A DNA stretch of 64,000 nucleotides from Jatrophihabitantaceae bacterium (GCA_045807085.1 JBJMIB010000037.1:39546-103545), one strand, 5' to 3'; positions 6,373-56,355 are shown, counted from the stretch's first letter. The notes: generated by a model not told the origin, from the letters alone. Numbers and translations are program-made.

Positions 6373-6386
6373 GGCGGGCTGCCCTG

Positions 6387-7109: not shown

Positions 7110-7312
7110 GGCCCTTAACAGTCATGGCCCAAAGTTGTGCATCACACCCGGCTCCGCTGCTGAACCGTGTGCAGTCAATTTTTATCAGATGCCGCGCGGG
7201 GACTGATATGGGTGCGGCATTTTTCCCGGAAATCCGGTCTGGACGCACCCGAGGTGCCGGTCGAACACCGTCCGACCCATAACGGTGTTTCCACGAGTGG
7301 TCAATCGGCCGC

Positions 7313-7957: not shown

Positions 7958-8031
7958 GGCTGTCGAGGCTAGCGAGTGAGCAGCGCAGTCGCGAGGAGCG
8001 CAGCGCGATTAACACCGGTTAGGCTCCGATC

Positions 8032-9084: not shown

Positions 9085-9108
9085 CCGACCGGGGTTGAAT
9101 GTCCTTCC

Positions 9109-38693: not shown

Positions 38694-38921
38694 GGCCGTC
38701 CCCCCATCAGGCGTGCTCGCTTGGTCTGCGGGGTTAGGAAAGCGGGTGTCGGCCGGGTTCCGCATCCGTAGCCACTACGTAGCAGCGGCCGACGTCCGCG
38801 CACGTACTGCGTAGTCGCTACCGACGTGTCCGGCGCGGCCGGCAGGCGATGCTGACGTGTGTCGCGACGAACTCGATCGGATCGGCCAAACCGGGGCTCG
38901 GGTCGCGGTACTGTGCGCGTC

Positions 38922-41516
38922 ATGGCCCATCGGTGGCCTTTCATCGGTCGCGCAGGTGAGTTGGCGCGCATCGAGTCCTTGATCACGTCCGGCATCGGCG
39001 CGCTCATCCTCGGCGAGCCGGGCGTCGGCAAGGCGGCCCTGGCCCGCCGCGCGGCGGAGCGGGTCGGCCCGGCAGCGCCGGTCGGACGCGTCATCGGGCG
39101 GGCGGTGTCCAACGGTGCACCGTTCGAGGCCTTCGCCGGGGTGCTGACGGCGGCCGACACCTCGGTCCTCTATCCCGTCGAGGTGGCGCGGCGGGTGGCC
39201 GAGGCGTTCGGGTCGCCGATCGGTACCAAGGTGCTGTTCGTGGTCGATGATGCTCAACTGCTCGATGAGCGCTCGGCACAGGTGTTGCTGCAACTCGCCG
39301 CCGACGGCACCGCGACGGTGTTGGCGACCGCCCGCGACCTCAGGCTGCCCGCGGCGGTTGAGCGGTTGTGGTACGACGGCTGGTGCGAGCGGATCGAGCT
39401 TGGCGGGTTGGCCGACGACGAGGTTCTGGAGCTCCTCGAAACCGTTCTCGACGCACCTGTCGGCGCTGCCGCCGCGCGGGCCTTCGCCAGCCGAGCCCAG
39501 GGCAATCCGTTATTGCTGCGCGAGCTCGTCGGCGCCGCGCTGAATGCCTCGACCCTCGTGTGGCGGGGCACGGCTTGGACGCTGGCCGGCGAGCCTCCGA
39601 TCAGCAGCGGCGTCCGGGAGCTGGTGAGGTCCCGGCTGGCGGCGCTGCCCGAGGCACAGCGCTCTGCTCTGGAGACGGTGGCCGCAGGGGAACCCCTCCC
39701 GGCTCCGGTCGTGGTCGACCTGATCGGTGAGACGGTGCTGGACGACCTCGACGCGAATCGGCTGATCACTGTCCACACCGGACTGGCCGGGCCGGAGGTC
39801 AGCAGCGCGCACCCATTGCAAGGTGAGGTGCTGCGCGCCGACATCCCGCTGCTGCGACTGCGCCGGCTTCGGCTGTTGTTGGCCAGCAAGCTGGAGGCCG
39901 TCGAAAGCCCGTCGCCGCACGATCTCGTCCGGGCAGCGTTGTGGCGGCTGGAGAACGGGCGGAGCGTAGATCCCGAGCGGCTGCTGGCTGCCGCCCGGGC
40001 CGCGCGAGGCATGAGTCTCGACACGGCCGAGCGGCTGGCCCGGCACGCGCACGAGATGAGCGGCTCGCTGCAGGCCACCGTGCTGCTCGCCGAGATCCTC
40101 ACGCACGCCGGGCGTAATGCGGAGGCAACGAAGCTGACCGAGACGCTGCCACCGGAATCGCTCACCTCGGCCGACCGGGAAGCCCTGGTGTACTGCGCCG
40201 CGATGGGGCAGGGTCTGATGATCGGCGACGCCGCCGGCGGCGCCGACTTCGTGGCCGCGGTGATGGCCGGCGATCCGGCCGCCAGTGACCAGTTACGTGG
40301 CTTGCACGCCTCGCTGCTGGCCTTCGACGGGCGATCGGGCGAGGCGATCGAGGTGGCCGGCCCGCTCGTCGAGAATCCGGACGCGCATCCGGTCGCGCGG
40401 ACGTTCGCGGCGATCGGCGCGGTCGGCGCCGAGTACTGGCTCGGCCATACTCGCCACGCAGTCGCCTTGGCTGACGCGGTCGCTCCGGTGGCCGCGACGG
40501 TCCGGGATGCGTTGCCCTTCGGCCCGGCCAGCATCGAGTTGATCGCCATCTGCGCACTGATCGAGGAGGGCGCGTTCGATCGGGCCGAAATGCGCGCCCA
40601 CCGGATGCGGGCACGGGCCACGGCCGATGATGACGCGTTCGCCGGCCCTCGAGGCGAGTACTGCATGGCCCGGGTCGAACTTGCCCGCGGCCGGCCCGCG
40701 ACCGCGCTGCGGGGATTCCGTCGCTGCGTGGCCGCACTCACCCCGTTCGACCAATCGTTCCTGCGACATATCAGCTCGATGCTGGCCCGGGCAGCCGCCA
40801 CCGTCGGAGATGTGACCAGCGCGCGGCAGGCCCTCGATGCCTGCGCCGACGCCCCGCGGATGAAGATGTACGAGCCGGAGTTCGAACTCGCCGTGGCCGC
40901 GCTGCATGCCGCCGATGTGCGGATGGCCGAGGCCGCCGACCATGCGGCCTGGGCCGCCGGCGTGGCCGCCGACCAGGGGCAGTGGAATGTCGCGCTCGCG
41001 GGTTATCACGACGCGGCTCGCTACGGCGTCGCCCGGACCATCCTCATCCCGCTGCGCGAGGCCGCCACGCACGTCGACGGGACGTTCGCGTGGTGCCTGA
41101 TCGACCACGCCTCGGCGTTGGCGGCCCGCGACCCGGTCGCGCTGGACGAGGTCGCCCGCCGGTTCGAGGTGCACTGCACGATCCTGCTGGCGGCCGAGGC
41201 GTCGGCCGAGGCTGCGCTCGCGCACACCGCTGCCGGGCATCCCCGGCCGGCCCGGGCCAGCGCGGCCCGCGCGGCGCTGCTGCGGGGTCAGTGCGAGGGT
41301 GCGTTGTCGCCCTGGTTGTTCGGTGCCGCCGTGGCGGTGCCGCTGACCGCGCGCGAACGGCAGATCGCCGCGCTGGCGGCCGGCGGCAACTCCGACGCGG
41401 CTATCGCCGACCGGCTCGGCATCTCTGCCCGAACCGTGCAGACCCACCTGGCCCGGGTCTACACCAAGCTCGGCATCAACAGCCGCACCGAGATCGGCCA
41501 GCACCTCAACGCCTGA
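38922..41516 (+). CDS. Large ATP-binding LuxR-family (LAL-like) regulator
   Basis: FIGRAGEL, GEPGVGKA Walker A variant, VVDDAQLLD, QGNPLLLREL, C-terminal LTARERQIA..AAGGNSDAAIADRLGISARTVQTHL. Confidence 0.88.
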   Translation: MAHRWPFIGRAGELARIESLITSGIGALILGEPGVGKAALARRAAERVGPAAPVGRVIGRAVSNGAPFEAFAGVLTAADTSVLYPVEVARRVAEAFGSPIGTKVLFVVDDAQLLDERSAQVLLQLAADGTATVLATARDLRLPAAVERLWYDGWCERIELGGLADDEVLELLETVLDAPVGAAAARAFASRAQGNPLLLRELVGAALNASTLVWRGTAWTLAGEPPISSGVRELVRSRLAALPEAQRSALETVAAGEPLPAPVVVDLIGETVLDDLDANRLITVHTGLAGPEVSSAHPLQGEVLRADIPLLRLRRLRLLLASKLEAVESPSPHDLVRAALWRLENGRSVDPERLLAAARAARGMSLDTAERLARHAHEMSGSLQATVLLAEILTHAGRNAEATKLTETLPPESLTSADREALVYCAAMGQGLMIGDAAGGADFVAAVMAGDPAASDQLRGLHASLLAFDGRSGEAIEVAGPLVENPDAHPVARTFAAIGAVGAEYWLGHTRHAVALADAVAPVAATVRDALPFGPASIELIAICALIEEGAFDRAEMRAHRMRARATADDDAFAGPRGEYCMARVELARGRPATALRGFRRCVAALTPFDQSFLRHISSMLARAAATVGDVTSARQALDACADAPRMKMYEPEFELAVAALHAADVRMAEAADHAAWAAGVAADQGQWNVALAGYHDAARYGVARTILIPLREAATHVDGTFAWCLIDHASALAARDPVALDEVARRFEVHCTILLAAEASAEAALAHTAAGHPRPARASAARAALLRGQCEGALSPWLFGAAVAVPLTARERQIAALAAGGNSDAAIADRLGISARTVQTHLARVYTKLGINSRTEIGQHLNA

Positions 41517-41626
41517 TGCGGCCGATCGCGCCACGGCGCGGGCGTTAGGCGGACGCCTGCCACTGCTCGGCGTAGGCGCGCAAGGTGCCCTTCGAAACCA
41601 TCGGCCCGCCAACCCTGCCTAAGTGG

Positions 41627-42772
41627 TCAATTCTCCGGTCGGAGGTGGTCATGCGCAGCATCCCTGGCCACCAGTTCGGCCTCGCAGATGGCCAGCAGGT
41701 CATTGAGCGTGTAGCCGTCCCGGGGCTTGCCGGCAGCGGCGACGTGGCCGGCGATGCCTTTGGTGCGAAGGGCTGTTCTCAACCGTGCCGCCAACGCTTC
41801 GGCGCTCAGCGACGGGCAATCCACCAGCAGCATGCCGAGTCCGTCCTGGCCGAGGTAGCCGATCGCGTCGCAACCGGCCTGCAGCCGAGCCACCGCGCTG
41901 ACCGCGACCGGGTCTGCGGTGGTTATCCGGATGATTGCCACTACCGGCAATGCGGCGACCACCTCGGTAGCGGCGATGGACCACGCTTCCTGCCCCATCG
42001 GCTGCAGCAGCGCATCGTCGGCCACATCTCGCAGCCGAGTTCGGGTGATCGTTCGTTGAAGCCCGACCGCCGCCGGCAGCGAGAGCCAGACCAGCATTCC
42101 GAGCCTGACGTCAACCAGCGCGACAACGCCAACAGCAATGGCAAGGCAGCAGACCTCGACCCGGTACGGACTCGGCTGGAGAAAGGCCCGCGCCGCTGAC
42201 CGTTCACCGGCCGCGAGCATCGCGGCGACGATTAGGAGAGCACCGATCGCGACATAGACCAAGACGGCCAGAGCGATTCCAAGCCACCGATCCACGCTCG
42301 AACTGGACACCGCGTGCGCAGCCGTCGCTGCCAGCACCGCTCCGGCTGTGCTGTAGACGTGCCGGTACAGGCGCGCTCTGCCAGCTACCCGTCGAGCAGG
42401 CCACTCGGCGGCGGCGCCCGCAACCGCTACGACCCACATCAGTTCGAGGGGAAGCAATACCGCGGCAGCGAAGCCCCAAATCGCCAGCAGGTTCGAGTAC
42501 CTGGCTGCCTCCGCCCCTTGGTGCAACGTCCGGCGGACCCGTTCGGCGCTGCACGTGTAGGTCGAGTAGGCGATACTCAGGGTGCCCAGCGCAACGGCTA
42601 TCTCGACGTCCGAGCGTGAGATCGCCTGCCAGAACGACGCGGGGAGCAGGACAGCCGCCAAGTCCACTGCCAGGATGAGGCCGAGCGCACCGGGTGGCTG
42701 TCGCCAGATCGGCCACTTTGCCGTCGCTCGGAGCACTACCTTGCACCCTTCTGCAGAATGCCCGCTGCACAA
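41627..42772 (-). CDS. Multi-TM membrane protein with a degenerate GGDEF-like C-terminus
   Basis: About 7 hydrophobic helices; DAIGYLGQDGLGMLL...AEALAARLR aligns by eye with the GGDEF region but lacks catalytic residues; start uncertain. Confidence 0.6.
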   Translation of the reverse strand: MCSGHSAEGCKVVLRATAKWPIWRQPPGALGLILAVDLAAVLLPASFWQAISRSDVEIAVALGTLSIAYSTYTCSAERVRRTLHQGAEAARYSNLLAIWGFAAAVLLPLELMWVVAVAGAAAEWPARRVAGRARLYRHVYSTAGAVLAATAAHAVSSSSVDRWLGIALAVLVYVAIGALLIVAAMLAAGERSAARAFLQPSPYRVEVCCLAIAVGVVALVDVRLGMLVWLSLPAAVGLQRTITRTRLRDVADDALLQPMGQEAWSIAATEVVAALPVVAIIRITTADPVAVSAVARLQAGCDAIGYLGQDGLGMLLVDCPSLSAEALAARLRTALRTKGIAGHVAAAGKPRDGYTLNDLLAICEAELVARDAAHDHLRPEN

Positions 42773-43320
42773 GCACGATGGGAGGTGACGTCACATGCGT
42801 AACTTCGAGTGGCCGTAAACCGGCACCATCTGGTCGCGTAGTCACGAACAGTACCTAGTGCGACGCGCGCTGTCACCACCCTGGCTGCCACGACCTTCCA
42901 GCGTCAGGGAGACCGCCCCGAGGTCGGCCGCGAACTGGCCGCTCGGCCTTCCTCGGGGCGGGAGCCAGCGCAGTGCGACACCAGCGCACCCGACACTTCC
43001 AGGTGGGGACCTCCGCCCACCCTCCTAGCCGGACAGCGCAGCGTACTGGCAAGTTTGGTGCTTACGGTTCCGGGGGATCGCCGGCTCGCGCAGCCGCTCC
43101 CGCAGGCGTCGCACACCCCCGGCCACCTTCAACGCAGCAGCGGAGCGTGCAGCGGCTGCCACCGTCCCTGAGTCTGAGGTTTCGCCGGCAGGCCCTCCCT
43201 GAGTGCCCCGACCGGCCGCGCTGGATGCGTACTGGCCACTGCGAAGCTCACGCAGCGTCAAAAAACGCAAGCCTGCGCACGCGGGTTTCGAAGGCCGGGC
43301 TCCGGCCAGCTTCCGCGCGG

Positions 43321-43352
43321 GCTGTCCGCAGCGAGTCCGCAAGCAGTCCGCG
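43321..43352 (-). repeat. Inverted array of three integrase arm-like sites outside the element
   Basis: GTCCGC(A/G) at 43324, 43335, 43346 (11-bp period); reverse complement matches 52205-52226 at 20/22. Confidence 0.75.
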
Positions 43353-43413
43353 AGACAGCCACCATGCGTCACCGTTGACCACCACTAGCCACCCTCAGGG
43401 AGCCGAAACGAGA

Positions 43414-43451
43414 ACCGGGCCGGACGTCATTCAGCTGACGTTCGGCCCGGT
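43414..43451 (-). terminator. Hairpin, probably the original sodN terminator displaced by the insertion
   Basis: ACCGGGCCGGACGTCA-TTCAGC-TGACGTTCGGCCCGGT, 16-bp stem with one mismatch, 16 bp beyond the left att copy. Confidence 0.7.
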
Positions 43452-43467
43452 CCGGAGCGGGCGAAGG

Positions 43468-43494
43468 CTAGGCAGCCTTCTTGGTCTCCCAGAA
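43468..43494. repeat. att core, left copy (duplicated sodN 3' end)
   Basis: CTAGGCAGCCTTCTTGGTCTCCCAGAA, identical to 52273-52299; encodes FWETKKAA-stop on the minus strand. Confidence 0.95.
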
Positions 43495-43496
43495 TT

Positions 43497-43639
43497 TGCG
43501 GACCACGCTGCAGGTCCGCGAATCCGGGCTCAGAGCCGCGCACCCCCCGGATTTCCTGGCCTCCGTACCGCTGACAAGCGTTGGCATCCGTGGGGGTCCG
43601 CTGGGCACGTTGCGGACTCCTTGCGGACAGCCTGCGGAC
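43497..43639 (+). promoter_or_regulatory. Integrase arm-type sites, left end of the element
   Basis: TGCGGAC at 43497, 43611, 43622, 43633 and inverted GTCCGCG at 43514. Confidence 0.75.
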
Positions 43640-43720
43640 TGACGTAAGCGGCCCGGCCGAGTGTTCGAAGCACTCAACCGGGCCTTGCCGAACTACCTAC
43701 CAGAGTTAGGAAGCCCGACC

Positions 43721-44194
43721 ATGAGCAAGAGTACGAGCGCCGGCAGACAGATACCTGATGAGGCCGCCGTCACAAAGCCATCCGTCCGAGCGCTGTGCTG
43801 CCAGTGCGGCCAGCTCAACACCTTTCCGACCGACCGCCCGTCGCCAAAGGGTGGCCTCAACTGGCGCGGCGAACGACAGCCCGTCGATGTGCGGGCCGGC
43901 ATCGTGCCGGCCGACGACGACACCGAGGCGTGGGCACGGTGTGTCATTCAGCGCCGCTGCCCGAACTGCAGAGAGCACACGACGCACGCCCTGCTGCGGG
44001 ATGAGCCCAGCCAGTACCGGGACAGTTTGGAGCGCACGCACCGGCTGCGCTGCGAGCAGGGCCGCAGGTACGACCCCGAGCCGCCCGAAGGGTGGACTCA
44101 ATGGGCGCTCGGCTACTGCACGTACTGCAGGTCTGGCATCGCGGAGTGGTTCGCCGACGTGCGTCGCTGGGATGCGCGTAGGGGCGGTGCCTGA
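43721..44194 (+). CDS. Cys-rich hypothetical protein (putative zinc-binding, phage-like)
   Basis: CCQC, CPNC, CTYC motifs; AGGAAG upstream of ATG 43721; TGATG coupling to the next ORF. Confidence 0.65.
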   Translation: MSKSTSAGRQIPDEAAVTKPSVRALCCQCGQLNTFPTDRPSPKGGLNWRGERQPVDVRAGIVPADDDTEAWARCVIQRRCPNCREHTTHALLRDEPSQYRDSLERTHRLRCEQGRRYDPEPPEGWTQWALGYCTYCRSGIAEWFADVRRWDARRGGA

Positions 44195-44373
44195 TGTACC
44201 TGGACGCGTGGCTGAACGATGACACCCCGCCGCACCCGCGCCGCCGCCTGACCGACCGCTGGTGGTATCGGCTCGGCCGGGCCGTGATCCTGCTCGGCAC
44301 GCACGCTGCCGCCGGGTGGATCGGGTACGACTGGCCCGCCGTCCTAGTGTGGATCGCCAGCAACCCGAAGTAG
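44194..44373 (+). CDS. 59-aa small membrane protein (not in the ORF track)
   Basis: MYLDAWLNDDTPPHPRRRLTDRWWYRLGRAVILLGTHAAAGWIGYDWPAVLVWIASNPK; translationally coupled and followed by a terminator. Confidence 0.6.
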   Translation: MYLDAWLNDDTPPHPRRRLTDRWWYRLGRAVILLGTHAAAGWIGYDWPAVLVWIASNPK

Positions 44374-44385
44374 AGCCCGCGCCGC

Positions 44386-44425
44386 CAAGAGGCCAGGTGT
44401 TCGAAACTGAACACCTGGCCTCTTG
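44386..44425 (+). terminator. Perfect 17-bp stem hairpin
   Basis: CAAGAGGCCAGGTGTTC-GAAACT-GAACACCTGGCCTCTTG, 12 bp after the stop at 44373. Confidence 0.8.
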
Positions 44426-44434
44426 CTGTGTGCG

Positions 44435-44959
44435 ATGATCCGGGCCGTGAACAGTGTTAGAACCGGCGCGGCGGGCGGCGCTGCGATGTTCCTGTTCCTG
44501 GTCCTAGCGCTTGCCGGTTGCACGGGGCACACGGGCCGAACCCCGCAGGAGCGAGCAGCCGCGTACGTGCAGAAGTATGGTGCTGAGGCGGTAGCTGTCC
44601 AGGGGGATGTGCAACAGGTGCAAGCCTTGCTTAAGACGACCGCCGCGAACGCCACCGACGCGAGCGTGGGCCGCCTGGCCATCATGGCGCAGGCCGCTCA
44701 CGATGACCTCGACTCGGGTAGGAGCGATTTCGCCACCGACGGGGGCGGTGGGGATGTCGGCGCGGCGATCACCTCCATGTACTCGGCCGTCAACGACTTG
44801 AAGAACGCCATGGGCGGCATCGTCGCCTACACCGGGAACCCGAACCCGGCCACTGAGGCGAAGATGGTCACTCAGTACCAGAACGCCGTCGCCGAGTGGA
44901 ACGACGCCGTGACGACGATCTGGTCAGTGGCCGGCGAGGGTAAGCCGCCGACGGTCTAG
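44435..44959 (+). CDS. Element-encoded lipoprotein (helical)
   Basis: Hydrophobic MFLFLVLALAGC lipobox followed by an alpha-helical, Ala/Gln-rich domain. Confidence 0.75.
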   Translation: MIRAVNSVRTGAAGGAAMFLFLVLALAGCTGHTGRTPQERAAAYVQKYGAEAVAVQGDVQQVQALLKTTAANATDASVGRLAIMAQAAHDDLDSGRSDFATDGGGGDVGAAITSMYSAVNDLKNAMGGIVAYTGNPNPATEAKMVTQYQNAVAEWNDAVTTIWSVAGEGKPPTV

Positions 44960-45270
44960 TCGAAGCGGGGTAGTTCGACGGGCAGCGAGTAGGCGTACAG
45001 CCAGCCGTTCCGCTGCCACCACTGATCGCCGCAGTCCGGCCCGTTGGTGGCGAGCCGGTAGAGCCGCATCCGGGCCCACTCGGTGAAGCTGGCGTCAACC
45101 TCCGGGGGGTTGTCCGGGTTGCTGACCGCGATCACTTCCCACGTCGTGCCCTGGTCGGCCTGCCGGGCCCGCATGAAGCCGCTCCGGCCGTCCCAAGGGA
45201 TCGAGCCGGGACGTGCCGGGATGATGGGCAGCGCGTGCGCCTGCCGCCACGCTTCCGGGTGGTCGTGCAT
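44956..45270 (-). CDS. Hypothetical protein coupled to the tail hub gene
   Basis: ATG at 45270 overlaps the TGA of the upstream gene (TGATG); 104 aa, Trp-rich. Confidence 0.65.
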   Translation of the reverse strand: MHDHPEAWRQAHALPIIPARPGSIPWDGRSGFMRARQADQGTTWEVIAVSNPDNPPEVDASFTEWARMRLYRLATNGPDCGDQWWQRNGWLYAYSLPVELPRFD

Positions 45271-47210
45271 CAGTAGGCGAAGACCATCGAGTCGAGCAAC
45301 CCATAGACCGGATCGTCGAGCGTGGCGTACAGGGAAGGATCGGCCGGCGCGGTGTTCAACGTCAGGGTGCAGGTGTCGGACCGGCCGGAGAAGTCCCACG
45401 ACAGCGACTCGATGACGAAATCCATGCTCGTGGACGGTGCCTCTGCCGGCAGCCCGGACACGGTGAACTGAACCCCGATCTCGGCCAGCGCCGCCACTGA
45501 CCAGAGGTCGCTGGCCCGCTTGAGGTCGATCGTCACGGTCGGTGTGCGCGGGATCGGCTGGGCGAGTCGGCCGATGCGGAAGTTCGCGTAGTCGGCCAGC
45601 TCGTTGTCGCTGGTGAGCTGCAGCAGTTCCGCGCCGGAGTCGTCGGGCGAGTTGGTGTAGACGCCGTAGTCGGCCACCGACGTCCCGGTGTCCCGGACCC
45701 GGATCACCGCGCCACCCGGACGGGTCACGGCGTAGTCGTTCAGCAGCAGCCCGTCGTCGATGCCGACCTGGAAATCCGCGGTCACGTCCTGCGCGGCGGC
45801 ATTCAGGCTGAACGCTGAGGTGCGGTTCATCGAGGCGAGCCGGCTACGGAAGATCAGCGCACCATCGCCCCGCATGAACAGCAGGCCCTGCTCGGTCTTG
45901 GCGACCGTCTGCAGCGCATCGAGGAAGGTCTTACCCGTAGTGTCGAACGGCGCGACGGCCGCTGTCATGCCGGTATCGGCGACCACCAACGGAGCGGCGA
46001 ACTGGTTGTAGCCGGCGAGCTGCGCGATGTCCGTCACCCATGAGCCGGTGTCGTTGTTGAGGTAGTACATCTGCCGGCCGTACAGCCAGCGGATGCTGTT
46101 GTTCAGCGTCGTGTCGGTGCCGATGTAGAACCCGATGTTCGCCAGGGAGCCGTTCAGGCCGTAGGCGGACTCGCCGTAGTTGGAGTACCGGCCGCCGGCG
46201 ACTACCCATGTCATGCCCCGCAGATAGATGTTCGCGCTGGTGGCGACGAAGGTTGCGGCCACCCCGTCCACGATCACCTGCTGAGTCTTCAGGTCGGTGA
46301 AGAACGACGCGGTGACGTAGTGCCAGACCCCATCGGCGTAGCTCGCGGCGCTGGTGACGGCCTGCCCGCCGATGGCGAAGTTCACCTTGCCGGCCGTGTC
46401 GACGTAGAGGTGCATCGTCGATGGCGGCAGCGTCGGTGTCAGCGCCGGGTCCTGCTGCAGCCCGGACGTGGCATACAACAAGGTTGCGTTGGCTGAAGGC
46501 GTGGTCAGCTTGAACCAGCATCCGATCGTCCAGTTCCCGGTGCGGGGCAGGCTCACCCCGGCAGGCCCCGGAGCGCCGCCGAGTTGGATCACGGTCATGT
46601 GCTCGGCGTTGCCGCTGCCGGTGAAGGCGAACGTGCAGTAGGTGGCGTTCGGCGCGCCCTGCAGGAACCCGGCACCGTTGCCGGCGGTGAACGTCCCGGC
46701 CCCGTACTTCGAGTCGAGCAACTGCGCCACGGGTGGCGAGGCGGCCGGCGCGATCGAGCCGAACGCCGTAGCGCCGGATGGCTCGGACAGCGGGAACGCG
46801 GCGGTGACGGTCATCCCGGACTGCAGCACCGACTCGGCGTAGAAGCTCTGCATCGTGCGCCGAGCTAGGCCCTTGAACCCGTCCGTCGCGCCGATGTTGA
46901 CAACCGCGGTCCGGCCACCGTCCCAGCTGGTGACGACGCTATCGAGGTTGCCGGTGAACAGGTAGGTGACGACGCTGGCGACGGTGACCGACACCCTCAC
47001 CGGCCGGTTCACCTTGACGTTCGGGTGTCCCGCGCCGGGCGAGTAGTTGCCGCTGTTGTTGTACAGGCTGCCGGAGAGCGTGCCGGGGCCGACCTGGTCG
47101 AACTCGTGCCCCCGTCCGCGGTTGATGCTGATCGAGTCGCAGTCGGCGGTTATGTCGGTCCAGGTGCCGGTGTTCGGCCAGTCGACTTCGACCTTCAGCG
47201 TGCCGCTCAT
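45270..47210 (-). CDS. Phage minor tail / baseplate hub-like protein with an inserted LamG (concanavalin A-like) domain
   Basis: AAGGA RBS; N-terminal WTDITADCDSISINRGRG..D..GPGTLS..LYN typical of actinophage tail proteins; LamG motifs WTIGCWFK, YADGVWHYV, VIVDGV, GGR..LNGSLANI; hub-like C-terminus LDALQTVAKTEQGLLFMRGDGALIFRSR. Confidence 0.75.
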   Translation of the reverse strand: MSGTLKVEVDWPNTGTWTDITADCDSISINRGRGHEFDQVGPGTLSGSLYNNSGNYSPGAGHPNVKVNRPVRVSVTVASVVTYLFTGNLDSVVTSWDGGRTAVVNIGATDGFKGLARRTMQSFYAESVLQSGMTVTAAFPLSEPSGATAFGSIAPAASPPVAQLLDSKYGAGTFTAGNGAGFLQGAPNATYCTFAFTGSGNAEHMTVIQLGGAPGPAGVSLPRTGNWTIGCWFKLTTPSANATLLYATSGLQQDPALTPTLPPSTMHLYVDTAGKVNFAIGGQAVTSAASYADGVWHYVTASFFTDLKTQQVIVDGVAATFVATSANIYLRGMTWVVAGGRYSNYGESAYGLNGSLANIGFYIGTDTTLNNSIRWLYGRQMYYLNNDTGSWVTDIAQLAGYNQFAAPLVVADTGMTAAVAPFDTTGKTFLDALQTVAKTEQGLLFMRGDGALIFRSRLASMNRTSAFSLNAAAQDVTADFQVGIDDGLLLNDYAVTRPGGAVIRVRDTGTSVADYGVYTNSPDDSGAELLQLTSDNELADYANFRIGRLAQPIPRTPTVTIDLKRASDLWSVAALAEIGVQFTVSGLPAEAPSTSMDFVIESLSWDFSGRSDTCTLTLNTAPADPSLYATLDDPVYGLLDSMVFAY

Positions 47211-47377
47211 CGTGTGTCCTTGCTGTAGGTGGACCCGGGAGCGCAGGCAGCGGGTACGCCCTCCGAGCAAGGGCTGAGCGTGGCGGCTAATTGGAGGCCG
47301 CGCCGGTTGCCTTGGATTCCCGCGCGCCGCGATTGCCCTAGCAGCGCGGGGGTGACTTTGACGCTCACCGGGTCAGG

Positions 47378-47551
47378 TCAGTCGTCGGTCGGCAGGGTCA
47401 CCCGGTCACCGACCGAGACTCCGGCCGTCAGGGTCGCTGTGCTCTGCTCGGCCATCTCCGCGAGGGCCAGCGCGACCGCGTTGGCCGGGCGGGACGTGAT
47501 GCAGTCGTCCGGGGTGCCGTCATCCGGCACGCCGGCAGGTTGGGTAATCAC
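47378..47551 (-). CDS. 57-aa small ORF (not in the ORF track)
   Basis: GTGA overlap with the upstream gene stop; MITQPAGVPDDGTPDDCITSRPANAVALALAEMAEQSTATLTAGVSVGDRVTLPTDD. Confidence 0.5.
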   Translation of the reverse strand: MITQPAGVPDDGTPDDCITSRPANAVALALAEMAEQSTATLTAGVSVGDRVTLPTDD

Positions 47552-48075
47552 TGGACGCCCCGCTCCATCGCGGACAGCCGCACGGCGGTCCGGATGAGCT
47601 TGGTGTCCCGACGACGGCGGGCGGTGATCCGCGCGGCGCGGTCGGCCAGCTCAGCGGCCTCCTGCACCTCCTCGAACGACGGTGCGGACGTGTCGGCCGA
47701 CGTGTCGCCGTACCATGCCTCGTTGCACTTGTCCTGCACCCACTTGGCCTGTAGGCCGGCCTGCCGCGCGTCTTCCCAGTCCATTCGGGACGACGCCAGC
47801 GCGACCATCTCGGCCCGGGTGTGCCCGATGCCGCCGTTACGGACGGCCTCCCGCACGTCGAAGATTTCGCCCCGGTCGACCGCGAGTTCGATCGAGGCCC
47901 TGATCCGCTTGTCCTCGTCCTGCGCCCGCAGCTCGGCCCGCTCCCGCTCCACCCGGGCGGCCTGCTGGTCGAACGCGGCATCGGCCATCTCGCACCGCAG
48001 CCGCAACGACGGCGACATGCGCTCACGGGACGCGCCGCCGAACCCGCCACCTACGAAAACAACCATCTCAGTCAC
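47548..48075 (-). CDS. Hypothetical helical/coiled-coil protein
   Basis: AAGGAG upstream, GTGA overlap with the HTH gene; heptad-like QQAARVERERAELRAQ segment. Confidence 0.65.
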   Translation of the reverse strand: MTEMVVFVGGGFGGASRERMSPSLRLRCEMADAAFDQQAARVERERAELRAQDEDKRIRASIELAVDRGEIFDVREAVRNGGIGHTRAEMVALASSRMDWEDARQAGLQAKWVQDKCNEAWYGDTSADTSAPSFEEVQEAAELADRAARITARRRRDTKLIRTAVRLSAMERGVQ

Positions 48076-48479
48076 TCGGAATTCTCCTTCGGGGTGGCCG
48101 GCAGCCCGGCGACGTAGGTCTGTAGGTCGGCAGTCCGCACAACCGCCTTGCCGGCGATGCGGACGCTGGGCAGTTCACCGGCAGCGATGAGCCGCTGTGC
48201 AGAGCGCTTCGAGCAGCGCAGCGCGTCAGCGGCTTCGTCAACGTCCAGCACAAGAGCCATGGGCGCAGAGTCAGCCTCAGCACCCGAGCCCGGCAAGTTT
48301 GGCGCTCCCTGGCGCTCGGTGGCGCTCTCTGTCGTTTCCAGCACCGCGATCAGGTCCCGCACGACAGCCGGAACGGGCAAGCCCTCAGCCCGACGACGCG
48401 TCCGATAGCTCACCAGGGCACGCCGCAGATGCACCCCATCGGACGCGTCCAGCGCCAACACCAGCGCCGAGCTACCCAT
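48072..48479 (-). CDS. Excisionase-like HTH_17 domain protein
   Basis: C-terminal LDVDEAADALRCSKRSAQRLIAAGELPSVRIAGKAVVRTADL; start trimmed to ATG 48479. Confidence 0.8.
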   Translation of the reverse strand: MGSSALVLALDASDGVHLRRALVSYRTRRRAEGLPVPAVVRDLIAVLETTESATERQGAPNLPGSGAEADSAPMALVLDVDEAADALRCSKRSAQRLIAAGELPSVRIAGKAVVRTADLQTYVAGLPATPKENSE

Positions 48480-48513
48480 GATCGCGCGCCCGCATCGTGG
48501 AAGACCCGGCACT

Positions 48514-48698
48514 CCGACCCGCCAGCCGAGCTTTTTCTGTCTGTAGCCGAAAAAAAGCAAGCCGTCGTGAAACGCCGGGCGCACCCGACCCGCCAGCCGA
48601 ACAGATTTCTCCCCCCGATACCCCGGGGAGGGGGGTAGGTAGCCGCGTGGTGGTGGAAAAAAAGCCGTAGATAGAAAAGGTTCGGCTGGCGGGTCGAG
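48514..48698. promoter_or_regulatory. Symmetric non-coding site: candidate packaging (cos-like) or replication site
   Basis: Three identical 15-mers CGACCCGCCAGCCGA (48515, 48586, inverted at 48682), a 28-bp inverted repeat (25/28), A7 tracts, and a central C6-GATA-CCCCGGGG-A-G6 near-palindrome. Confidence 0.55.
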
Positions 48699-48849
48699 AG
48701 GCCGTTCGGTTTCGCGATCCGGTTCGGTTGTGGGCTGCCGTGTCGCGCTCGGCCCGGTCGAGTTCGATGCACCCGGCGATGGTCAGGCCGGCGAGCGGGG
48801 TCAGCCAGGAGGCTGTCACCAGCATGTTGTGCAGGGCGGCGTACAGCAT

Positions 48850-49557
48850 TTAGCTGGCCCTGATGTCGAGCTGAGGGAATGGGCAGTACTGGCCTGCGGT
48901 CAGCCTGTGGCAGCCGGAGTTGTCGCCCATCGTGGTCCGTCGTCGGCACTCGCTGCAGTTCGGCTCTGTGCCGCTGGTGTTCGGTGAGTCGGCAACGGTG
49001 GTGGTGGTGTCCGGTGCTGCTTCGTCGGTGCGCTGTTCCTGGTGTTGCTGGTCGGGTGCGTCGCGGCTGCCGTCGTGGTCGGGTCGCCGGTCGCGGCCTT
49101 GGTCTAAGGCTCCGTGCTCACTTGCGTTCGCGCTGTCTTCTATTGACTCGGCCACTAGGTGGCACACTCGTTCGGGCCGGGAGTGTGTACTTTCTGGCTC
49201 ACTCGTTCGGCCATTAGTGGTGCACTCCCTAGCTTCGGAGTAGGCCACATGTGGCGCACTATCGCCTTGCGGAGTAGGCCATTCGTGGCACACTCCGGGC
49301 AGTGCCGCCTGATACCTCGATCGGGCACCGACACCGCCCCGGGCGATGCGGTCCAGCCAGCCGGCGTCAACCGCTTTCGCCAGGTGGCGCGCGAGCGTCC
49401 GGACAGGTAGCCCGGTCAGCTCGGCCATCTCCGTATTCGTGGCCGTGATGGTGCCCTCGGTGGTCATCGGCAGCAGCAGCAGCGTTGCCCGTGCGATCCG
49501 TAGCCCGGCCGGGAAGTCGCCGCGCCGTACCTCGCGTAGCCACTGCCCGCGGTTCAT
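48850..49557 (-). CDS. Winged-HTH replication initiator-like protein
   Basis: N-terminal wHTH TNTEMAELTGLPVRTLARHLAKAVDAGWL..G....SRY, internal iterons, low-complexity linker, C-terminal Cys cluster. Confidence 0.7.
   Translation of the reverse strand: MNRGQWLREVRRGDFPAGLRIARATLLLLPMTTEGTITATNTEMAELTGLPVRTLARHLAKAVDAGWLDRIARGGVGARSRYQAALPGVCHEWPTPQGDSAPHVAYSEARECTTNGRTSEPESTHSRPERVCHLVAESIEDSANASEHGALDQGRDRRPDHDGSRDAPDQQHQEQRTDEAAPDTTTTVADSPNTSGTEPNCSECRRRTTMGDNSGCHRLTAGQYCPFPQLDIRAS
49150..49294. repeat. Four iterons inside the initiator gene (putative ori)
   Basis: GGCCA-N4/5-TGGYRCACT at 49150, 49209, 49243, 49277; the last three are spaced exactly 34 bp. Confidence 0.8.
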
Positions 49558-49784
49558 GGTGACCCGCCGAGAGTGAGTTCCACCTGGTGCCCGTCGGCCA
49601 CCAGCGCGGCCTCAACGTCTGCAAGGTGCTGGCGGGCTACCAGGTAGGCGTGCCGGCGATGGTCGTACATCCACGGGATGCCGAGCCGCTGAATGGCGGG
49701 GTGCACGATCCGAACCGGGCCGCTGATAAGGCCGCTGTGCATGTGCACGCCGGTTCGGATGGTGGAGGAGGTCTTCTTCTTCAC
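49554..49784 (-). CDS. Hypothetical protein
   Basis: 76 aa; GTGA and ATGA overlaps on both sides within the early operon. Confidence 0.65.
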   Translation of the reverse strand: MKKKTSSTIRTGVHMHSGLISGPVRIVHPAIQRLGIPWMYDHRRHAYLVARQHLADVEAALVADGHQVELTLGGSP

Positions 49785-50209
49785 GCGGCAACACCTGGGT
49801 CTCCATCGAGAAGATCACCGCGATCTCCATCGAGCCGAACACCTGGGTAGTCAGGTGAGCCGCCGTACCGCTGCCGGTTGCGGTACGCCTGTTCGAATCT
49901 GTAGCACTTCGCGCAGCGCCTGCAGCGAGTCCGGCAAGGCTCGTTGTCGCACTGCCGAGCCCGCGCCAGCTCATCCTGCGTCGGCTGCCTGAGTGTGGAG
50001 ATCGTCGGTGCAAGCCACTCACTGACCCGTTCGGCGTGCGCGTCCCACCCCGCGAGCCAGCCCGCCGTGTAGTGACCGAACTCCTCCGGGGAGAACGGCC
50101 AGAACGGCGAGGTTCTGTCGGTGCCAGCGGGTAGGATCGGGCCGTCAGTGGTGCGGTTTGGGATCGGGTCGGTCTGGGCGGGCCGACCTTTTCCATCCGG
50201 CGGGCTCAC
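49781..50209 (-). CDS. Hypothetical protein with a Cys-rich motif
   Basis: GTG 50209 overlaps the upstream TGA; GWLAGW and CRTRCRRCAKC motifs. Confidence 0.6.
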   Translation of the reverse strand: MSPPDGKGRPAQTDPIPNRTTDGPILPAGTDRTSPFWPFSPEEFGHYTAGWLAGWDAHAERVSEWLAPTISTLRQPTQDELARARQCDNEPCRTRCRRCAKCYRFEQAYRNRQRYGGSPDYPGVRLDGDRGDLLDGDPGVAA

Positions 50210-50394
50210 GCGGCATCGCCGCTGCAGCTCTGCGCGTCGATCCACTGCTCTAGCGCATCGGCGGGGTACCGGACGAGACGGCCGGTCTTGATCCACTTCG
50301 GGCCATAGCCGATGCCGCGCCAGTAGCGCAGCGTTTCGATCGGCCGCTTCAACCGCGCCCCGACTTCTAGCGGGGTGAGTAGTTCGCTCATCAC
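50206..50394 (-). CDS. AlpA/excisionase-type HTH protein
   Basis: LLTPLEVGARLKRPIETLRYWR..GYGPKWIKTGRLVRY....LEQWI; GGAG RBS. Confidence 0.88.
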   Translation of the reverse strand: MMSELLTPLEVGARLKRPIETLRYWRGIGYGPKWIKTGRLVRYPADALEQWIDAQSCSGDAA

Positions 50395-50402
50395 GTCTCC
50401 TA

Positions 50403-50498
50403 TTCGCGTAGGTGCTCTGGCCTACATACATAGCGTGACAGCGAGAGCGAACGCGTAGGAGCGTTGACTTACGCGGGAGGTCGTGTAACCTACGCGTT
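50403..50498. promoter_or_regulatory. Divergent switch region with operator repeats
   Basis: CGCGTAGG at 50405 and 50452; perfect inverted repeat AACGCGTAGG (50450-50459) / CCTACGCGTT (50489-50498); TTGACT-N16-TAACCT ending 7 nt before GTG 50499. Confidence 0.65.
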
Positions 50499-51152
50499 GT
50501 GACGCTTTTCTCGATCGGCCGGGCCGGCTGGGTCCGGTTCGAATCCGCGGACTGCCCGCCGACCTACCTCCGGTACCTGCCTGACGAGATCGGCCGATGG
50601 ACGCTGCGCGAGCTGATGATGGACGCCAGCGAGTCTCCGGCGATCACAGCGGCGACTCTGGCCGCGCTGCCGCTGGCCCAAATCGAGTTCAATGTGAACT
50701 ACTACGCCGACTTGATGGAGGGCAGCCAAGAGGGCGGCCAAACGCTATCGAGCGCGGTCGGTGGTCCTGCTGCCGGCTCCAACGTGGCTGTCCTCGCTTC
50801 CCATTTCGCTACCGGCTTCGTCAAGTACCAGCCGGAGAAGTGGGTAGCGCTCGCGCAGCAGGGTAAGCAGGTCGGCAAGGAGCGACGCGCTGTAGGGGCC
50901 AAACGTCCGACTCTGGACGTTGACTACCGCCTCACGGAACCGCCGCCCGGCAGGTTGACCGATGAGTTTCTAGGCAAGGTGGCGCGCGCCTATGCCGCTG
51001 CGATGGTGCGGGGTGAAGCGCCGCTCCAAGCAATGATCGCGGACCTTCGAGCGGCAGGCGCTGGCGACTACCGGCGCGCGGTTGAGCGCTGGGTTGCTAC
51101 AGCACGGAAACGCGGCGTCATGCCGCCCGGCAAGAAAGGTGCTCGCGGATGA
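50499..51152 (+). CDS. Putative regulator with a C-terminal HTH-like region (resembles DUF6214)
   Basis: LGKVARAYAAAMVRGEAPLQAM...AVERWVATARKRGVM; divergent from AlpA-like gene and ATGA-coupled to the integrase. Confidence 0.6.
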   Translation: MTLFSIGRAGWVRFESADCPPTYLRYLPDEIGRWTLRELMMDASESPAITAATLAALPLAQIEFNVNYYADLMEGSQEGGQTLSSAVGGPAAGSNVAVLASHFATGFVKYQPEKWVALAQQGKQVGKERRAVGAKRPTLDVDYRLTEPPPGRLTDEFLGKVARAYAAAMVRGEAPLQAMIADLRAAGAGDYRRAVERWVATARKRGVMPPGKKGARG

Positions 51153-52237
51153 GCAGCAGCATCACCAAGCGGCCGAACGGTCAATGGCGGGCCCGGTACC
51201 GGGACGCGGACAACCGGGAGCACGCTCGGCACTTCTCCCGCAAGGTGGACGGGCAGCGCTGGCTGGACGAGCAGACCGCTGGCCTGGTCACCGGGCAGCA
51301 CATCGACCCCCGCTCGGCCAAGGTCACCTTGCGCGCCTACGCCGAACAGTGGGAAGCGGTGCAGGTCTGCCGGCCGGCAACCGCCAGCATCACCAGCAAC
51401 GCGCTCCGGCTGCATATCCTGCCCCGGCTCGGCAACCGGCCCATGTCGTCGATCCTGCGAACCGACGTTCAGGCACTCGTCAAGGCCCTGTCCGATGACC
51501 TGGCACCGTCCAGCACCCGGAACGTTTACGACACCTTAACGCGGGTGTTCGGTGCCGCTGTCGATGACCGGATCGTTGCCAGCTCACCATGCCGCCGGAT
51601 CACCCTGCCCCCGGTCGATGACAGCGAGATCGTGCCGCCGACCGTCGAACAGGTCCGGGCGATGGTGGACGCCATGCCCGAGCGGTACCGCGCCGCCGTT
51701 GTGCTGCTGGCCGGGTCCGGCCTGCGGATCGGGGAACTGCTCGGCCTGCAGCGCTCCGACGTGGACTTTCTGCGCCGCACCGTCCGGGTAGAGCGGCAAC
51801 GGCTGCAGAACGGCCAGCTAGGGCCCTGCAAGACCGGCAAGAGCGTCCGCACCGTCCCGCTCGGCCAGGTCGTCATCGACCAGCTAGCCGCCCACCTGGC
51901 TTCGGGCTCCGTGGAGCCCGAAGCCTCACCTGAGATGTTCACGGCCGGGAGGGGTCAGCCGCTCCGCTACAACGCCTGGAAGGCGGCCTGGCAGGCCGCG
52001 TGCCGGGTCACCGGGCACGAGCTGACCACGCACGACCTGAGGCACTTCTACGCGTCCAGCCTGATCGCCGGGGGAGCGTCGGTGAAGCAGGTTCAGACGG
52101 TGCTCGGCCACGCCAGCCCGGTCGTCACCTTGCGGGTGTACTCGCACATGTGGCCCGGCGACGATGACCGGGTACGCACGATCACCGATGCCACGCTGGA
52201 GCCCTTGCGGACTATCTGCGGACAGCAGGCGGTGTGA
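51149..52237 (+). CDS. Tyrosine recombinase / phage integrase
   Basis: N-terminal arm-binding WRARYRD; catalytic GLRIGELLGL (R), KT, HDLRHFYAS (HxxR), LGH, TLRVYSH (Y). Confidence 0.96.
   Translation: MSSSITKRPNGQWRARYRDADNREHARHFSRKVDGQRWLDEQTAGLVTGQHIDPRSAKVTLRAYAEQWEAVQVCRPATASITSNALRLHILPRLGNRPMSSILRTDVQALVKALSDDLAPSSTRNVYDTLTRVFGAAVDDRIVASSPCRRITLPPVDDSEIVPPTVEQVRAMVDAMPERYRAAVVLLAGSGLRIGELLGLQRSDVDFLRRTVRVERQRLQNGQLGPCKTGKSVRTVPLGQVVIDQLAAHLASGSVEPEASPEMFTAGRGQPLRYNAWKAAWQAACRVTGHELTTHDLRHFYASSLIAGGASVKQVQTVLGHASPVVTLRVYSHMWPGDDDRVRTITDATLEPLRTICGQQAV
52206..52223 (+). promoter_or_regulatory. Integrase arm-type sites, right end of the element
   Basis: TGCGGAC at 52206 and 52217 (11-bp period), within the end of int. 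Confidence 0.75.
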
Positions 52238-52272
52238 GCACCATGCAGCCCAGCAAATACGGGCCTTCCCGC

Positions 52273-52299
52273 CTAGGCAGCCTTCTTGGTCTCCCAGAA
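52273..52299. repeat. att core, right copy (3' end of intact sodN)
   Basis: Identical to 43468-43494. Confidence 0.95.
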
Positions 52300-52671
52300 G
52301 ATCGTGTCGATCTCGGCGATCAGGTCCAGCAGCGCCTGGCCCTCGGCCGGGTCGACGGAGCCCTTGCCGCCGGCCGCGCCGGCTGCCTTGGTGGCCTTGT
52401 TGAACAGCTCGTGCAGCTGCGGGTACTTCTCGAAGTGCGGCGGCTTGAAGTAGTCGGTCCACAGCACCCACAGGTGGTGCTTGACCAGGTCTGCCCGCTG
52501 CTCCTTGATCAGCAGCGCCCGGGTGCGAAAGACCGGGTCCTCGTTGGCCTGGTACTTCTCCATGATGGCCTTCACCGACTCGGCTTCGATCCGAGCCTGG
52601 GCCGGGTCGTAGACACCGCACGGCAGGTCGCAGTGAGCTGAGGCAGTGGCCACACGACGCATCAAGCGCAT
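52273..52671 (-). CDS. sodN: Nickel superoxide dismutase
   Basis: Leader followed by the nickel hook HCDLPCGVYDPAQA; HLWVLWTDYFK. Confidence 0.97.
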   Translation of the reverse strand: MRLMRRVATASAHCDLPCGVYDPAQARIEAESVKAIMEKYQANEDPVFRTRALLIKEQRADLVKHHLWVLWTDYFKPPHFEKYPQLHELFNKATKAAGAAGGKGSVDPAEGQALLDLIAEIDTIFWETKKAA

Positions 52672-54900: not shown

Positions 54901-56169
54901 CTATCCGGAGTCGGTGTCGTGTCGGGTGCCGGTCGGGTCGGTGAGTAGTTCGGGATGGTGCAGATAGTTGCGTTGTGGTTGCTGGGTCGGGTGCCAGTCT
55001 GGTGGTTGCCAGTGTGGGATGCCGTTGAGCATGACCGTCCGCCAACCCTGCTTCGGCGCTTCGACGTTGTGGTAGCCGCAGGCGATCGCCATGCTGTCCA
55101 GGTTGGTGTGGCCGCCGGTGGCCCAGTCGGTGGCGTGATGGATCTCCGACCGTGCGGCGCTGCGGTCGCAGCCGGGAAAGGTGCAGCCACGGTCGCGGGC
55201 GAATAGCGCTTTGCGCTGGCCGGGTGAGGCCAGCCGGCGGCCGCGGCCGTAGGCGAGGATGCCGCCGGTGTCGTCGAGCACGGCGGGCAGTAGACCGCCG
55301 TCGGCGGCGAGGCGCAGCGCGTCGTCGATGGTGAGGGTGCCGCCGTGGTGGGTGGTGGCTCGGCCGGCCCGGCGTTCCACGTCGGTGAGGCTCAGGGTGA
55401 GGATCAGCTGGCTGGGTAGCCCGGCGTGGTCGGGCAGCTCGCCGGTGGCGAGCAGTCGGCGGCCGGCTTCTTCGAACGCGTCGTGCAGCCGCTGCGCCGG
55501 ACTGCGATCATCCGCACCGAGCGCGTCGTCCGGTCGGGCAGCGGCCAGCGGGGTGAGGACCGCTTCCCAGATGGCCTGGCAGGCCGGTGTGAGCCGGCCG
55601 TCCAGCAGCCCGGTCGAATCCGGGAGGCAGGTCAAGGAGAGTCGCCGGTGGGCCTGTTGCAGCCGCCGCTCGTCGGGGCTGGGGCCGTCCGGGTCCAGGT
55701 GGGCCAGGATCCGCTGGCCGAGCAACCGGATCGTGCGCGGATCGCTGGTCCGAGCGTGCTCCACCAGCGTTGATTCCACCGGTGCCGCGTGTGCGGCCCG
55801 CTCCGCCGCGGGGATGGCCTCGACCGTCTCGGCGATCGCCGCCGCGTGCTCGCAACCGACCTCACCGGCCTCGAATGCGGCGGCCGTGGCGGGCAGCATC
55901 GGCTCCAGCGGCTCGCCGATCAAGCTCCGCCGGGCACCGAACCGCTCGACCGCCTGCGCCCGCTTCCGCGCCTCGGCCCGGCCGCAGCGCAGCTGCGCCG
56001 CGATCAAGTCCGACAGCCCGCGGAAGCCCAACGTGCCGGGCACACTCCGCGCGTTGAGTTCGGCCAACACCGCCAACTGCCGGTATCGCAAGCGAGCCAG
56101 CTCGGCTTCCAGCTCCACAACCTCGGCGAGCAGCTGAGCATCCGTAGCGGTCCCGAGCGGCTCGATCAC
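54901..56169 (-). CDS. DUF222 / HNH endonuclease signature protein (13E12-repeat family)
   Basis: RSPAQRLHDAF, GRGRRLASPGQRKALFARDRGCTFPGC, EIHHATDWATGGHTNL....ACGYHN. Confidence 0.9.
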   Translation of the reverse strand: MIEPLGTATDAQLLAEVVELEAELARLRYRQLAVLAELNARSVPGTLGFRGLSDLIAAQLRCGRAEARKRAQAVERFGARRSLIGEPLEPMLPATAAAFEAGEVGCEHAAAIAETVEAIPAAERAAHAAPVESTLVEHARTSDPRTIRLLGQRILAHLDPDGPSPDERRLQQAHRRLSLTCLPDSTGLLDGRLTPACQAIWEAVLTPLAAARPDDALGADDRSPAQRLHDAFEEAGRRLLATGELPDHAGLPSQLILTLSLTDVERRAGRATTHHGGTLTIDDALRLAADGGLLPAVLDDTGGILAYGRGRRLASPGQRKALFARDRGCTFPGCDRSAARSEIHHATDWATGGHTNLDSMAIACGYHNVEAPKQGWRTVMLNGIPHWQPPDWHPTQQPQRNYLHHPELLTDPTGTRHDTDSG

Positions 56170-56177
56170 ATGTTCGA
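56162..56177. promoter_or_regulatory. LexA SOS box overlapping the DUF222 start
   Basis: TCGATC-ACAT-GTTCGA, one mismatch from the actinobacterial TCGAAC-N4-GTTCGA; TAGAAT -10 directly adjacent on the minus strand. Confidence 0.7.
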
Positions 56178-56355
56178 TTCTACCGTACCGAACAGCGATA
56201 GGCAAGCCTCGCCGTCCATGAATTTCCTTATGAAGTAAGGCGAAAACGAAAAGCAGCAACGCAACCGAGGCGGAAGCACGACTCCTCGCCGCTGCGCCTT
56301 TTTGTTTGGCCGAAAGGCAGATCACCAGCGTTCCGGGCGTCTGGCAGCGGTGGCT

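Follow-up and report, generated by a model that had tools for sequence, protein, structure and literature searches.

The element examined here, an 8,805-bp integrative element with a single tail gene, lies at positions 43468-52299 of a stretch of 64,000 nucleotides (below, the window) from the genome of a Jatrophihabitantaceae bacterium (GCA_045807085.1, JBJMIB010000037.1:39546-103545), and is introduced through the described systems that resemble it most. The PLEs of Vibrio cholerae are satellites of phage ICP1 (Mathur, Boyd et al., Nature 2026, PMC12987554); it was shown experimentally that their virions take in the PLE-encoded tape-measure protein (TMP) and exclude the TMP and the hub of the helper, and PLE11 encodes a TMP, a tail chaperone (TAC) and a putative baseplate hub of its own (PMC12987554). 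The EPIPs, satellites of Mycolicibacterium aichiense (Qian et al., bioRxiv, December 2025), measure about 11 kb and carry a tape measure (PMC12822802), and a tail fibre is carried by MiniFlayer (PMC10690885). The detection program SatelliteFinder (de Sousa et al. 2023) counts tail genes as 'forbidden components' of phage-inducible chromosomal islands (PICIs) as well as of capsid-forming PICIs (cfPICIs) (PMC10085698), so that the element described here would be rejected by it.

Like the PLEs, the element is small and integrative, lacks a capsid gene and holds a tail-core part of its own, in both cases including a baseplate hub. The differences from the PLEs are several: chimeric satellite/helper tails were shown for the PLEs, whereas for the present element they are proposed; there is no sequence homology, and no family of the PLE type (large serine recombinase, RepA, TcaP) was recognised; the recombinase of the PLEs is of the large serine type and the phage that they parasitise is a lytic myovirus, whereas a tyrosine integrase and a siphophage-type LamG hub are present here; and the PLEs carry TMP, TAC and hub together with capsid-redirecting and anti-phage genes, whereas here a hub was detected and no TMP or TAC. 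With the EPIPs, which were compared by description only, the element shares the bacterial order and the combination of a tail gene with helix-turn-helix (HTH) proteins, and one of its siblings (G091) also has a tape measure; the EPIPs differ in having a serine integrase, TerS, major capsid, scaffold and head-tail adaptors, none of which was found here, and the tail gene here is a hub and not a tape measure. In its small size and its att flanks with the integrase at one end the element is like PICIs, Staphylococcus aureus pathogenicity islands (SaPIs) and phiRv1/phiRv2 of M. tuberculosis, its gene order can be read as theirs (int, putative regulator, alpA/xis, putative rep-ori), and the likeness extends to siblings, one with TerS and no TerL as in SaPIs (L065) and one with a head-only module as in phiRv1 of M. 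tuberculosis or the cfPICIs (G169); unlike PICIs, no TerS, Ppi, Cpm or capsid gene was recognised in the element, the hub is a tail gene, and Rep has no primase or helicase domain. On defining features the element fails membership of the PICIs, the PLEs, the EPIPs and the actinomycete integrative and conjugative elements (AICEs).

The reading that we favour, at about even odds, is that of a helper-dependent element of satellite type, the hub of which enters the tails of a helper phage or blocks them. An earlier sequence-only reading of the window had gone further and proposed a new class of satellite with a 'reverse strategy', in which heads and tail tubes are borrowed and the tail tip is supplied; this novelty is not supported, as capsid-less satellites with a tail core of their own were already shown in PLEs (PMC12987554) and the EPIPs carry a tape measure (PMC12822802), and since PLEs, EPIPs and MiniFlayer are already published, a tail part of its own in a satellite is not a new principle. 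What would be new is a tyrosine-integrase element with a siphophage-type LamG hub as its only virion gene. If the satellite reading is true, the chimeric-tail strategy of the PLEs would have in this element its first counterpart of siphophage type and from Gram-positive bacteria, and also its barest form, one gene bearing the probable receptor-binding domain, and the rule of 'forbidden' tail genes in satellite detection (PMC10085698) would hide a group of satellites; an own tail tip has so far been shown only in the cholera-phage satellites. If the element is only a remnant of a prophage, it is ordinary.

The element and its tail-tip hub

The element is bounded by the perfect 27-bp direct repeat CTAGGCAGCCTTCTTGGTCTCCCAGAA, with identical copies at 43468-43494 (attL core) and 52273-52299 (attR core), which are the only two copies in the window and stand 8805 bp apart (0 expected, 100 shuffles). 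The attR core comprises the last nine codons and the stop of sodN, a nickel superoxide dismutase gene (52273-52671, minus strand; PF09055, E 2e-46), which a sodX-type peptidase gene adjoins and into whose 3' end the tyrosine integrase has inserted the element. TGCGGAC triplets flank the future attP core on both sides, one set (52204-52231) within the 3' end of int and the other at 43610-43636 (plus strand; P' arm-type sites, three copies about 11 bp apart, direct-repeat family D1, inverted pairs I4/I5), and are putative arm sites of the integrase. Fourteen intact genes were recognised from the frame-specific G+C content of third codon positions (GC3) and the lists of open reading frames, and they are coupled by 4-nt start/stop overlaps in the series alpA>p142>p76>rep, hth170>p175>p57 and p217>int and by a 1-nt overlap in hub>p104. 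The anatomy claimed by the sequence-only reading was recovered in full: an intact 8.8-kb element with att repeats, arm sites, int, a divergent switch and a coupled operon, an iteron-containing initiator, a symmetric cis site and a second HTH protein, with all reading frames uninterrupted and tightly coupled.

Its further statement that a hub/LamG tail protein with a coupled partner is the only virion-type gene agrees with both the family scans and tblastn. Beyond the hub, no virion, terminase, lysis or conjugation family was found in the element in Pfam, PHROGs, NCBIfam or PADLOC, and the same scans gave no capsid, portal, terminase, tube, tape measure, lysin, holin, relaxase or FtsK-type gene; tblastn searches of the element with the virion proteins of related phages matched the hub and nothing else.

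The hub (45270-47210, minus strand, 646 aa) has the fold of a gp27-like hub, into which a LamG domain (PF13385, Laminin_G_3) is inserted, and matches phrog_5313 at E 6e-50. Its closest relatives, all on metagenomic phage contigs, are 52, 48, 44 and 40% identical over the full length and colinear, and more distant relatives occupy the same place in a Streptomyces prophage (L059) and in the Streptomyces phage Chymera (gp18). An AlphaFold2 model built from 11 sequences (pLDDT 76, pTM 0.69) matched baseplate hubs over its full length (diffocin 8v3w_H, AlgoCIS 7aef_q, MuSo2 3cdd and the HFTV1 tail) and predicted phage proteins in BFVD (highest TMq 0.74), among them proteins of Streptomyces, Arthrobacter and Rhodococcus phages that are annotated as minor tail proteins; the insert matched LamG and CBM40 domains in the structure search, and the hub sequence had no match in the PDB. 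The hub is a complete siphophage tail-tip protein; in the related phages it is the only large protein after the tape measure, and it is probably both the tail hub and the receptor-binding part.

The same hub-plus-LamG fold, with full-length homology, is found in the hubs that follow the tape measure in actinobacterial siphophages (phrog_5313; L003, L004, L005, L058; prophage L059; distantly Chymera gp18). On the hub-bearing phage contigs the hub gene begins directly behind the upstream gene or overlaps its end; this upstream gene is a PF10145 tape measure in L003 and L005, and the gene order of L003 is portal, protease, capsid, tube, tape measure, hub, small genes and GH25 lysin. In these phages two or three small tail genes and then the lysin come after the hub, whereas the hub of the present element lies outside a tail module: no tape measure precedes it, it stands behind p175 and p57, and its coupled partner p104 is unrelated.

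The late block comprises p175 (47548-48075, minus strand; GC3 0.89), its first gene, which is helical, has no significant family match and gave a poor single-sequence AlphaFold2 model (pLDDT 62); p57 (47378-47551, minus strand; GC3 0.86), coupled to p175 and without matches in Pfam, PHROGs, NCBIfam or PADLOC; the hub; and p104 (44956-45270, minus strand), assigned from its reading frame and GC3 of 0.91 and coupled to the hub through a TGATG overlap. No similarity was found between p104/p147 and the genes after the hub in phages. The genes from p217 through hth170 have GC3 values of 0.73-0.83, against 0.86-0.91 for p175, p57, hub and p104, and those of phage L003 (0.81-0.90) are close to the late block; the step between backbone and late block suggests a mosaic origin and fits a small element that already existed and then captured a block of phage genes. 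The protein of one gene of the phage contig L003 (15553-16557) shares 62% identity with that of a gene on the host chromosome (G000:C34:89753-90442), which hints that phages of the L003 type infect related hosts; no CRISPR-spacer-like matches were found between the hub-bearing phage contigs and the host genome.

The backbone and its relatives

The conserved backbone consists of int and p217, the divergent alpA/xis gene, p142, p76, a winged-HTH (wHTH) Rep whose gene contains iterons, and an HTH_17 protein. The tyrosine integrase (51149-52237, plus strand) matches PF00589 (3e-26), PF14659, PF22022 and phrog_1 (9e-62). Coupled to it, in the position of a repressor, stands p217 (50499-51152, plus strand), which has a 41% identical homologue at the same position in G091; no family match in Pfam, PHROGs, NCBIfam or PADLOC and no recognisable DNA-binding domain were found for it. 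Between the p217/int pair and the divergent alpA gene lies a control region (50395-50498), read from the sequence, with CGCGTAGG-type sites and a perfect 10-bp inverted repeat, AACGCGTAGG...CCTACGCGTT; the inverted repeats of this region look operator-like. The alpA gene (50206-50394, minus strand) encodes an AlpA/Xis-type HTH_17 protein of 62 aa (PF12728, 6e-5; phrog_66, 1e-5), so that of a PICI-type divergent pair beside int the layout and the AlpA-type gene are present, with p217 unrecognisable as a repressor. The early operon continues with the Cys-rich p142 (49781-50209, minus strand; scanned as 140 aa, 49781-50203), whose GTG start overlaps the alpA stop, and with p76 (49554-49784, minus strand), a conserved partner of Rep with homologues in L009 (78% identity), L063 (53%) and G091 (41%). 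A 41% identical homologue of p142 occurs in another island of the same genus (G119), which also gave a weak rep match; it is a different element and was set aside as a family member.

Rep (48850-49557, minus strand; 235 aa) resembles replication initiators with a wHTH, as indicated by wHTH matches in Pfam and by weak matches to phage replication initiators (phrog_270, 2e-5; phrog_678, 2e-4). Its gene contains the repeats TGGCACACTCGTTCGG and TGGCTCACTCGTTCGG, 35 bp apart, within iterons that span 49159-49295, and the rep gene of L009 holds the same iteron motif with the same 35-bp spacing. Downstream, a symmetric cis site (48514-48717) combines three copies of CCGACCCGCCAGCCGA, two direct and one inverted, with a 28-bp inverted repeat; it is weakly alignable to a sibling and may serve as a pac/cos site, a late promoter or an operator. 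The last backbone gene, hth170 (48072-48584, minus strand), encodes an HTH_17/excisionase-type protein of 170 aa (PF12728, 1e-10; TIGR01764), whose true start may be an internal ATG at about 48479, as read from the translation. Homologues of hth170 stand downstream of rep in L063 (38%) and L065 (34%), and neither hth170 nor p175 matched the equivalent genes of G091 in BLAST and hhalign comparisons.

A profile search of 1.84 billion representatives outlined the Rep family as 92 clusters at E<=1e-10, and about twelve Rep contexts, several of them on short contigs, were read. None of these was demonstrably a full phage. Those visible end to end measure about 6-10 kb. Across the contexts the late regions differ, with a NACHT protein in one, only a tape measure in another, and elsewhere a head-only set or TerS without TerL; the family appears to comprise small mosaic elements in Mycobacteriales with defence genes or single virion parts. 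The nearest relative, L009 (4475-12535), measures 8.03 kb between 32-nt repeats at tRNA-Leu(TAG); its p76-Rep pair is 78-80% identical to that of the present element, its integrase and regulator are different, and its late region encodes a NACHT (STAND NTPase) protein of about 940-1000 aa. The sibling in a Jatrophihabitans metagenome-assembled genome (MAG; L029, G091:C3 2437-12458) carries int, the p217 homologue (41%), xis, p76, rep, an HTH protein, an HNH-like gene and p155 (phrog_11991), followed by a lone tape measure of 1,341 aa with a tail-lysozyme domain, its only clear virion gene. On a 10.3-kb contig of a Mycobacteriales MAG (L030, G169:C109 35-10168), a serine integrase and Rep are present, and only capsid, portal, protease and TerL follow rep. 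The L065 element (207-11015) has int, Rep (48%), the hth170 homologue and then TerS (phrog_1496, 7e-24), with no TerL in the 3.4 kb after TerS.

Other members include L063, with the same backbone on an incomplete contig; L066, of about 8-10 kb, which has Wadjet/AbiE genes as neighbours, encodes PemK and lacks virion genes; L062, in which chromosomal genes begin about 3 kb after rep; G020, with a serine integrase, Prim-Pol and rep; and the decayed relatives G016 and G007, which show truncated integrases, truncated or frameshifted genes and fragments of rep or capsid genes. Neither Rep nor p217 matched any of 50,697 phage genomes in tblastn, Rep had no match in IMG/VR either, and scans of genome, metagenome and viral collections with the Rep alignment gave only the loci already found or none. 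Taken by sequence and gene content, the backbone appears to define a rare, poorly sampled and mosaic family of small phage-derived integrative elements of Mycobacteriales.

Satellite, prophage remnant or cargo island

The satellite reading implies a course of events in which a helper siphophage of the L003/L058 type would lift repression, Int and the AlpA-like protein would excise the 8.8-kb circle, and Rep would fire the iteron origin so that the circle replicates; the late block (p175, p57, hub, p104) would then be expressed. The satellite hub would replace that of the helper at the tail tip and yield chimeric tails, as in the Vibrio PLEs, and the outcome would be either a receptor specificity of their own for the particles that carry the element or spoiled helper tails; heads, tail tube and packaging would come from the helper, the packaging acting on a cis site, possibly 48514-48717. 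This reading draws on the perfect att repeats, the arm sites on both sides and the overlapping start and stop codons throughout; on the contrast between the intact element and the broken genes of G016 and G007; on the recurrence of the backbone in small elements, of about 6-10 kb where both ends are visible, and on siblings with partial virion or packaging sets; on the GC3 step, a sign of mosaic capture; on the tail precedent in PLEs and EPIPs; and on a Rep and a p217 unmatched in known phages, beside a hub of full length with no vestiges of tail genes.

Several findings weigh against the satellite reading. Every other placed hub homologue lies in a complete phage tail module, and the hub-only layout is known from one case (n=1); family scans gave no helicase or primase domain in Rep, and no TerS, Ppi, Cpm, Rpp, capsid-size or other hijacking gene in the element (Pfam, PHROGs, NCBIfam, PADLOC). 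The element of G091 has no convincing att repeat, and its ends are undefined. Many family contexts are short contigs, so full-length phages with this backbone may exist. The host genome holds no resident helper: neither a PF10145 tape measure nor a PF05065 HK97-type capsid gene is present and, the hub apart, the virion proteins of L003, L029 and L030 have no homologues in it.

The rival that survives best, though fairly unlikely in our judgement, is that of a defective prophage remnant, in which a temperate siphophage with the order int, early genes, virion genes, tail was stripped of all that lay between its early region and the hub, and of all genes behind the hub, and the hub is a leftover without a present role. 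The confinement of hub homologues to complete tail modules and the missing helper both speak for it, as do the decayed relatives of the Rep family (G016, G007), and because the early genes and the hub share one orientation, internal deletions could yield this order. Set against this are the preserved codon overlaps at every junction, the absence of truncated genes and frameshifts, and att repeats that match perfectly even though the host exerts no selection on attL; the hub is of full length and colinear, no vestiges of a tape measure or of post-hub genes were found in the element by tblastn (E<5), and other small intact elements have the backbone, whereas no sequenced phage does. Because the backbone recurs in small elements, several of them with only a subset of virion or packaging genes, the element is, on this comparison of gene content, not a simple deletion derivative of a full prophage. 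The sequence-only reading had itself named an outcome that would undo it, namely that close homologues are always full prophages and the element a simple deletion of one: the first part is borne out for the hub, whose homologues all lie in full tail modules, but the second is not.

An unlikely alternative of another kind is a mobile defence island, in which the hub, perhaps with p104, p175 and p57, is a cargo that protects the host, an orphan hub poisoning the tail assembly of incoming related phages as a dominant-negative counterpart of tail-assembly inhibition, and does not serve the transfer of the element, whatever the route by which this moves. NACHT (STAND NTPase) proteins are a known anti-phage type, and it is such a protein that the nearest sibling, L009, has in place of the late region; L066, with PemK, lies beside Wadjet/AbiE genes; and the lipoprotein p178 and the small membrane protein p59 of the present element could be taken for exclusion genes. 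Inhibitors of tail assembly are encoded by satellites and prophages (PMC11364771; Rta in PMC12987554), but the known Tai and Rta proteins are not homologous to tail proteins. None of the genes of the element was matched by PADLOC, and a complete, well-conserved hub with a receptor-type LamG domain exceeds the needs of a poison.

It is very improbable that the element is AICE-like and mobilised by conjugation in trans, with the repeats of 48514-48717 as a transfer locus and the LamG protein as an adhesin-type cargo: the cis site does hold repeated GACCCGCC-type words, and size, int/xis/rep layout and actinobacterial host resemble those of AICEs, which are actinobacterial elements of similar size with such a layout, but no FtsK/TraB, relaxase, Spd, Nudix/Pra or RepSA/RepAM/Prim-Pol gene was found in the element in Pfam or NCBIfam, siblings carry capsid, terminase and tape-measure genes, and the fold of the LamG protein is that of a phage hub, its homologues being confined to phages.

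Within the satellite reading a wider proposal, which we hold to be rather doubtful, is that the backbone family has a slot for one exchangeable virion part, filled by the hub here, the tape measure in G091, the head set in G169 and TerS in L065. A lone hub would then give helper-built particles a receptor specificity of their own, and the next host would be chosen independently of the helper. On this proposal the satellite finders now in use would overlook the entire group, since they turn down every element with a tail gene.

Accessory genes and flanking DNA

The att-distal end of the element carries three accessory genes on the plus strand. The first encodes p177 (43661-44194, GC3 0.80), a Cys-rich DUF6315 protein (PF19836, E 9e-8), and is followed by the gene for p59 (44194-44373, 59 aa, GC3 0.93), a small hydrophobic protein recognised as an open reading frame without a family match, for which a membrane location is predicted. 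Between p59 and p178 lies a perfect palindrome (44386-44425; 17-nt arms, 6-nt loop; inverted pair I20, 100% complementary), which could be a terminator or an operator. The third gene encodes p178 (44423-44959), a probable lipoprotein by its LALAGC lipobox, with no family match above threshold and possibly with a role in superinfection exclusion. A promoter and terminator scan and an Rfam search gave nothing informative.

The host genome measures 4.57 Mb in 41 contigs, with 69% G+C and 98% completeness, and the family Jatrophihabitantaceae belongs to the order Mycobacteriales in GTDB terms. In genus relatives the g360 homologue directly adjoins sodN (gene order, G111). No exact empty site was found in the relatives, because the left flank is strain-specific, and the comparison covers gene order alone (sodN-g360). 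Between attL and the g360 homologue the window holds an extra 4.9 kb (38608-43467) that is missing at that position in the genus relatives; it contains a LuxR-type gene of 885 aa, a gene for a membrane protein of 381 aa and about 700 nt of non-coding DNA, and in this non-coding part an inverted copy of the arm-site triplet of the element is present at 43316-43343. The 4.9-kb stretch may be a relic of an older island at the same hotspot, and with the inverted triplet beside attL it suggests that the end of sodN may be a repeated target.

Elsewhere in the window, ARAGORN reported a tRNA-Arg(CCT) of 99 nt at 10872-10970, which is unusually long for a tRNA. On the other side of the element, at 54901-56325, a 474-aa protein with an HNH-type C-terminus is encoded, which is kept in relatives (72% in G116) and presumably resembles the 13E12-repeat/DUF222 proteins of mycobacteria, the target of phiRv1.

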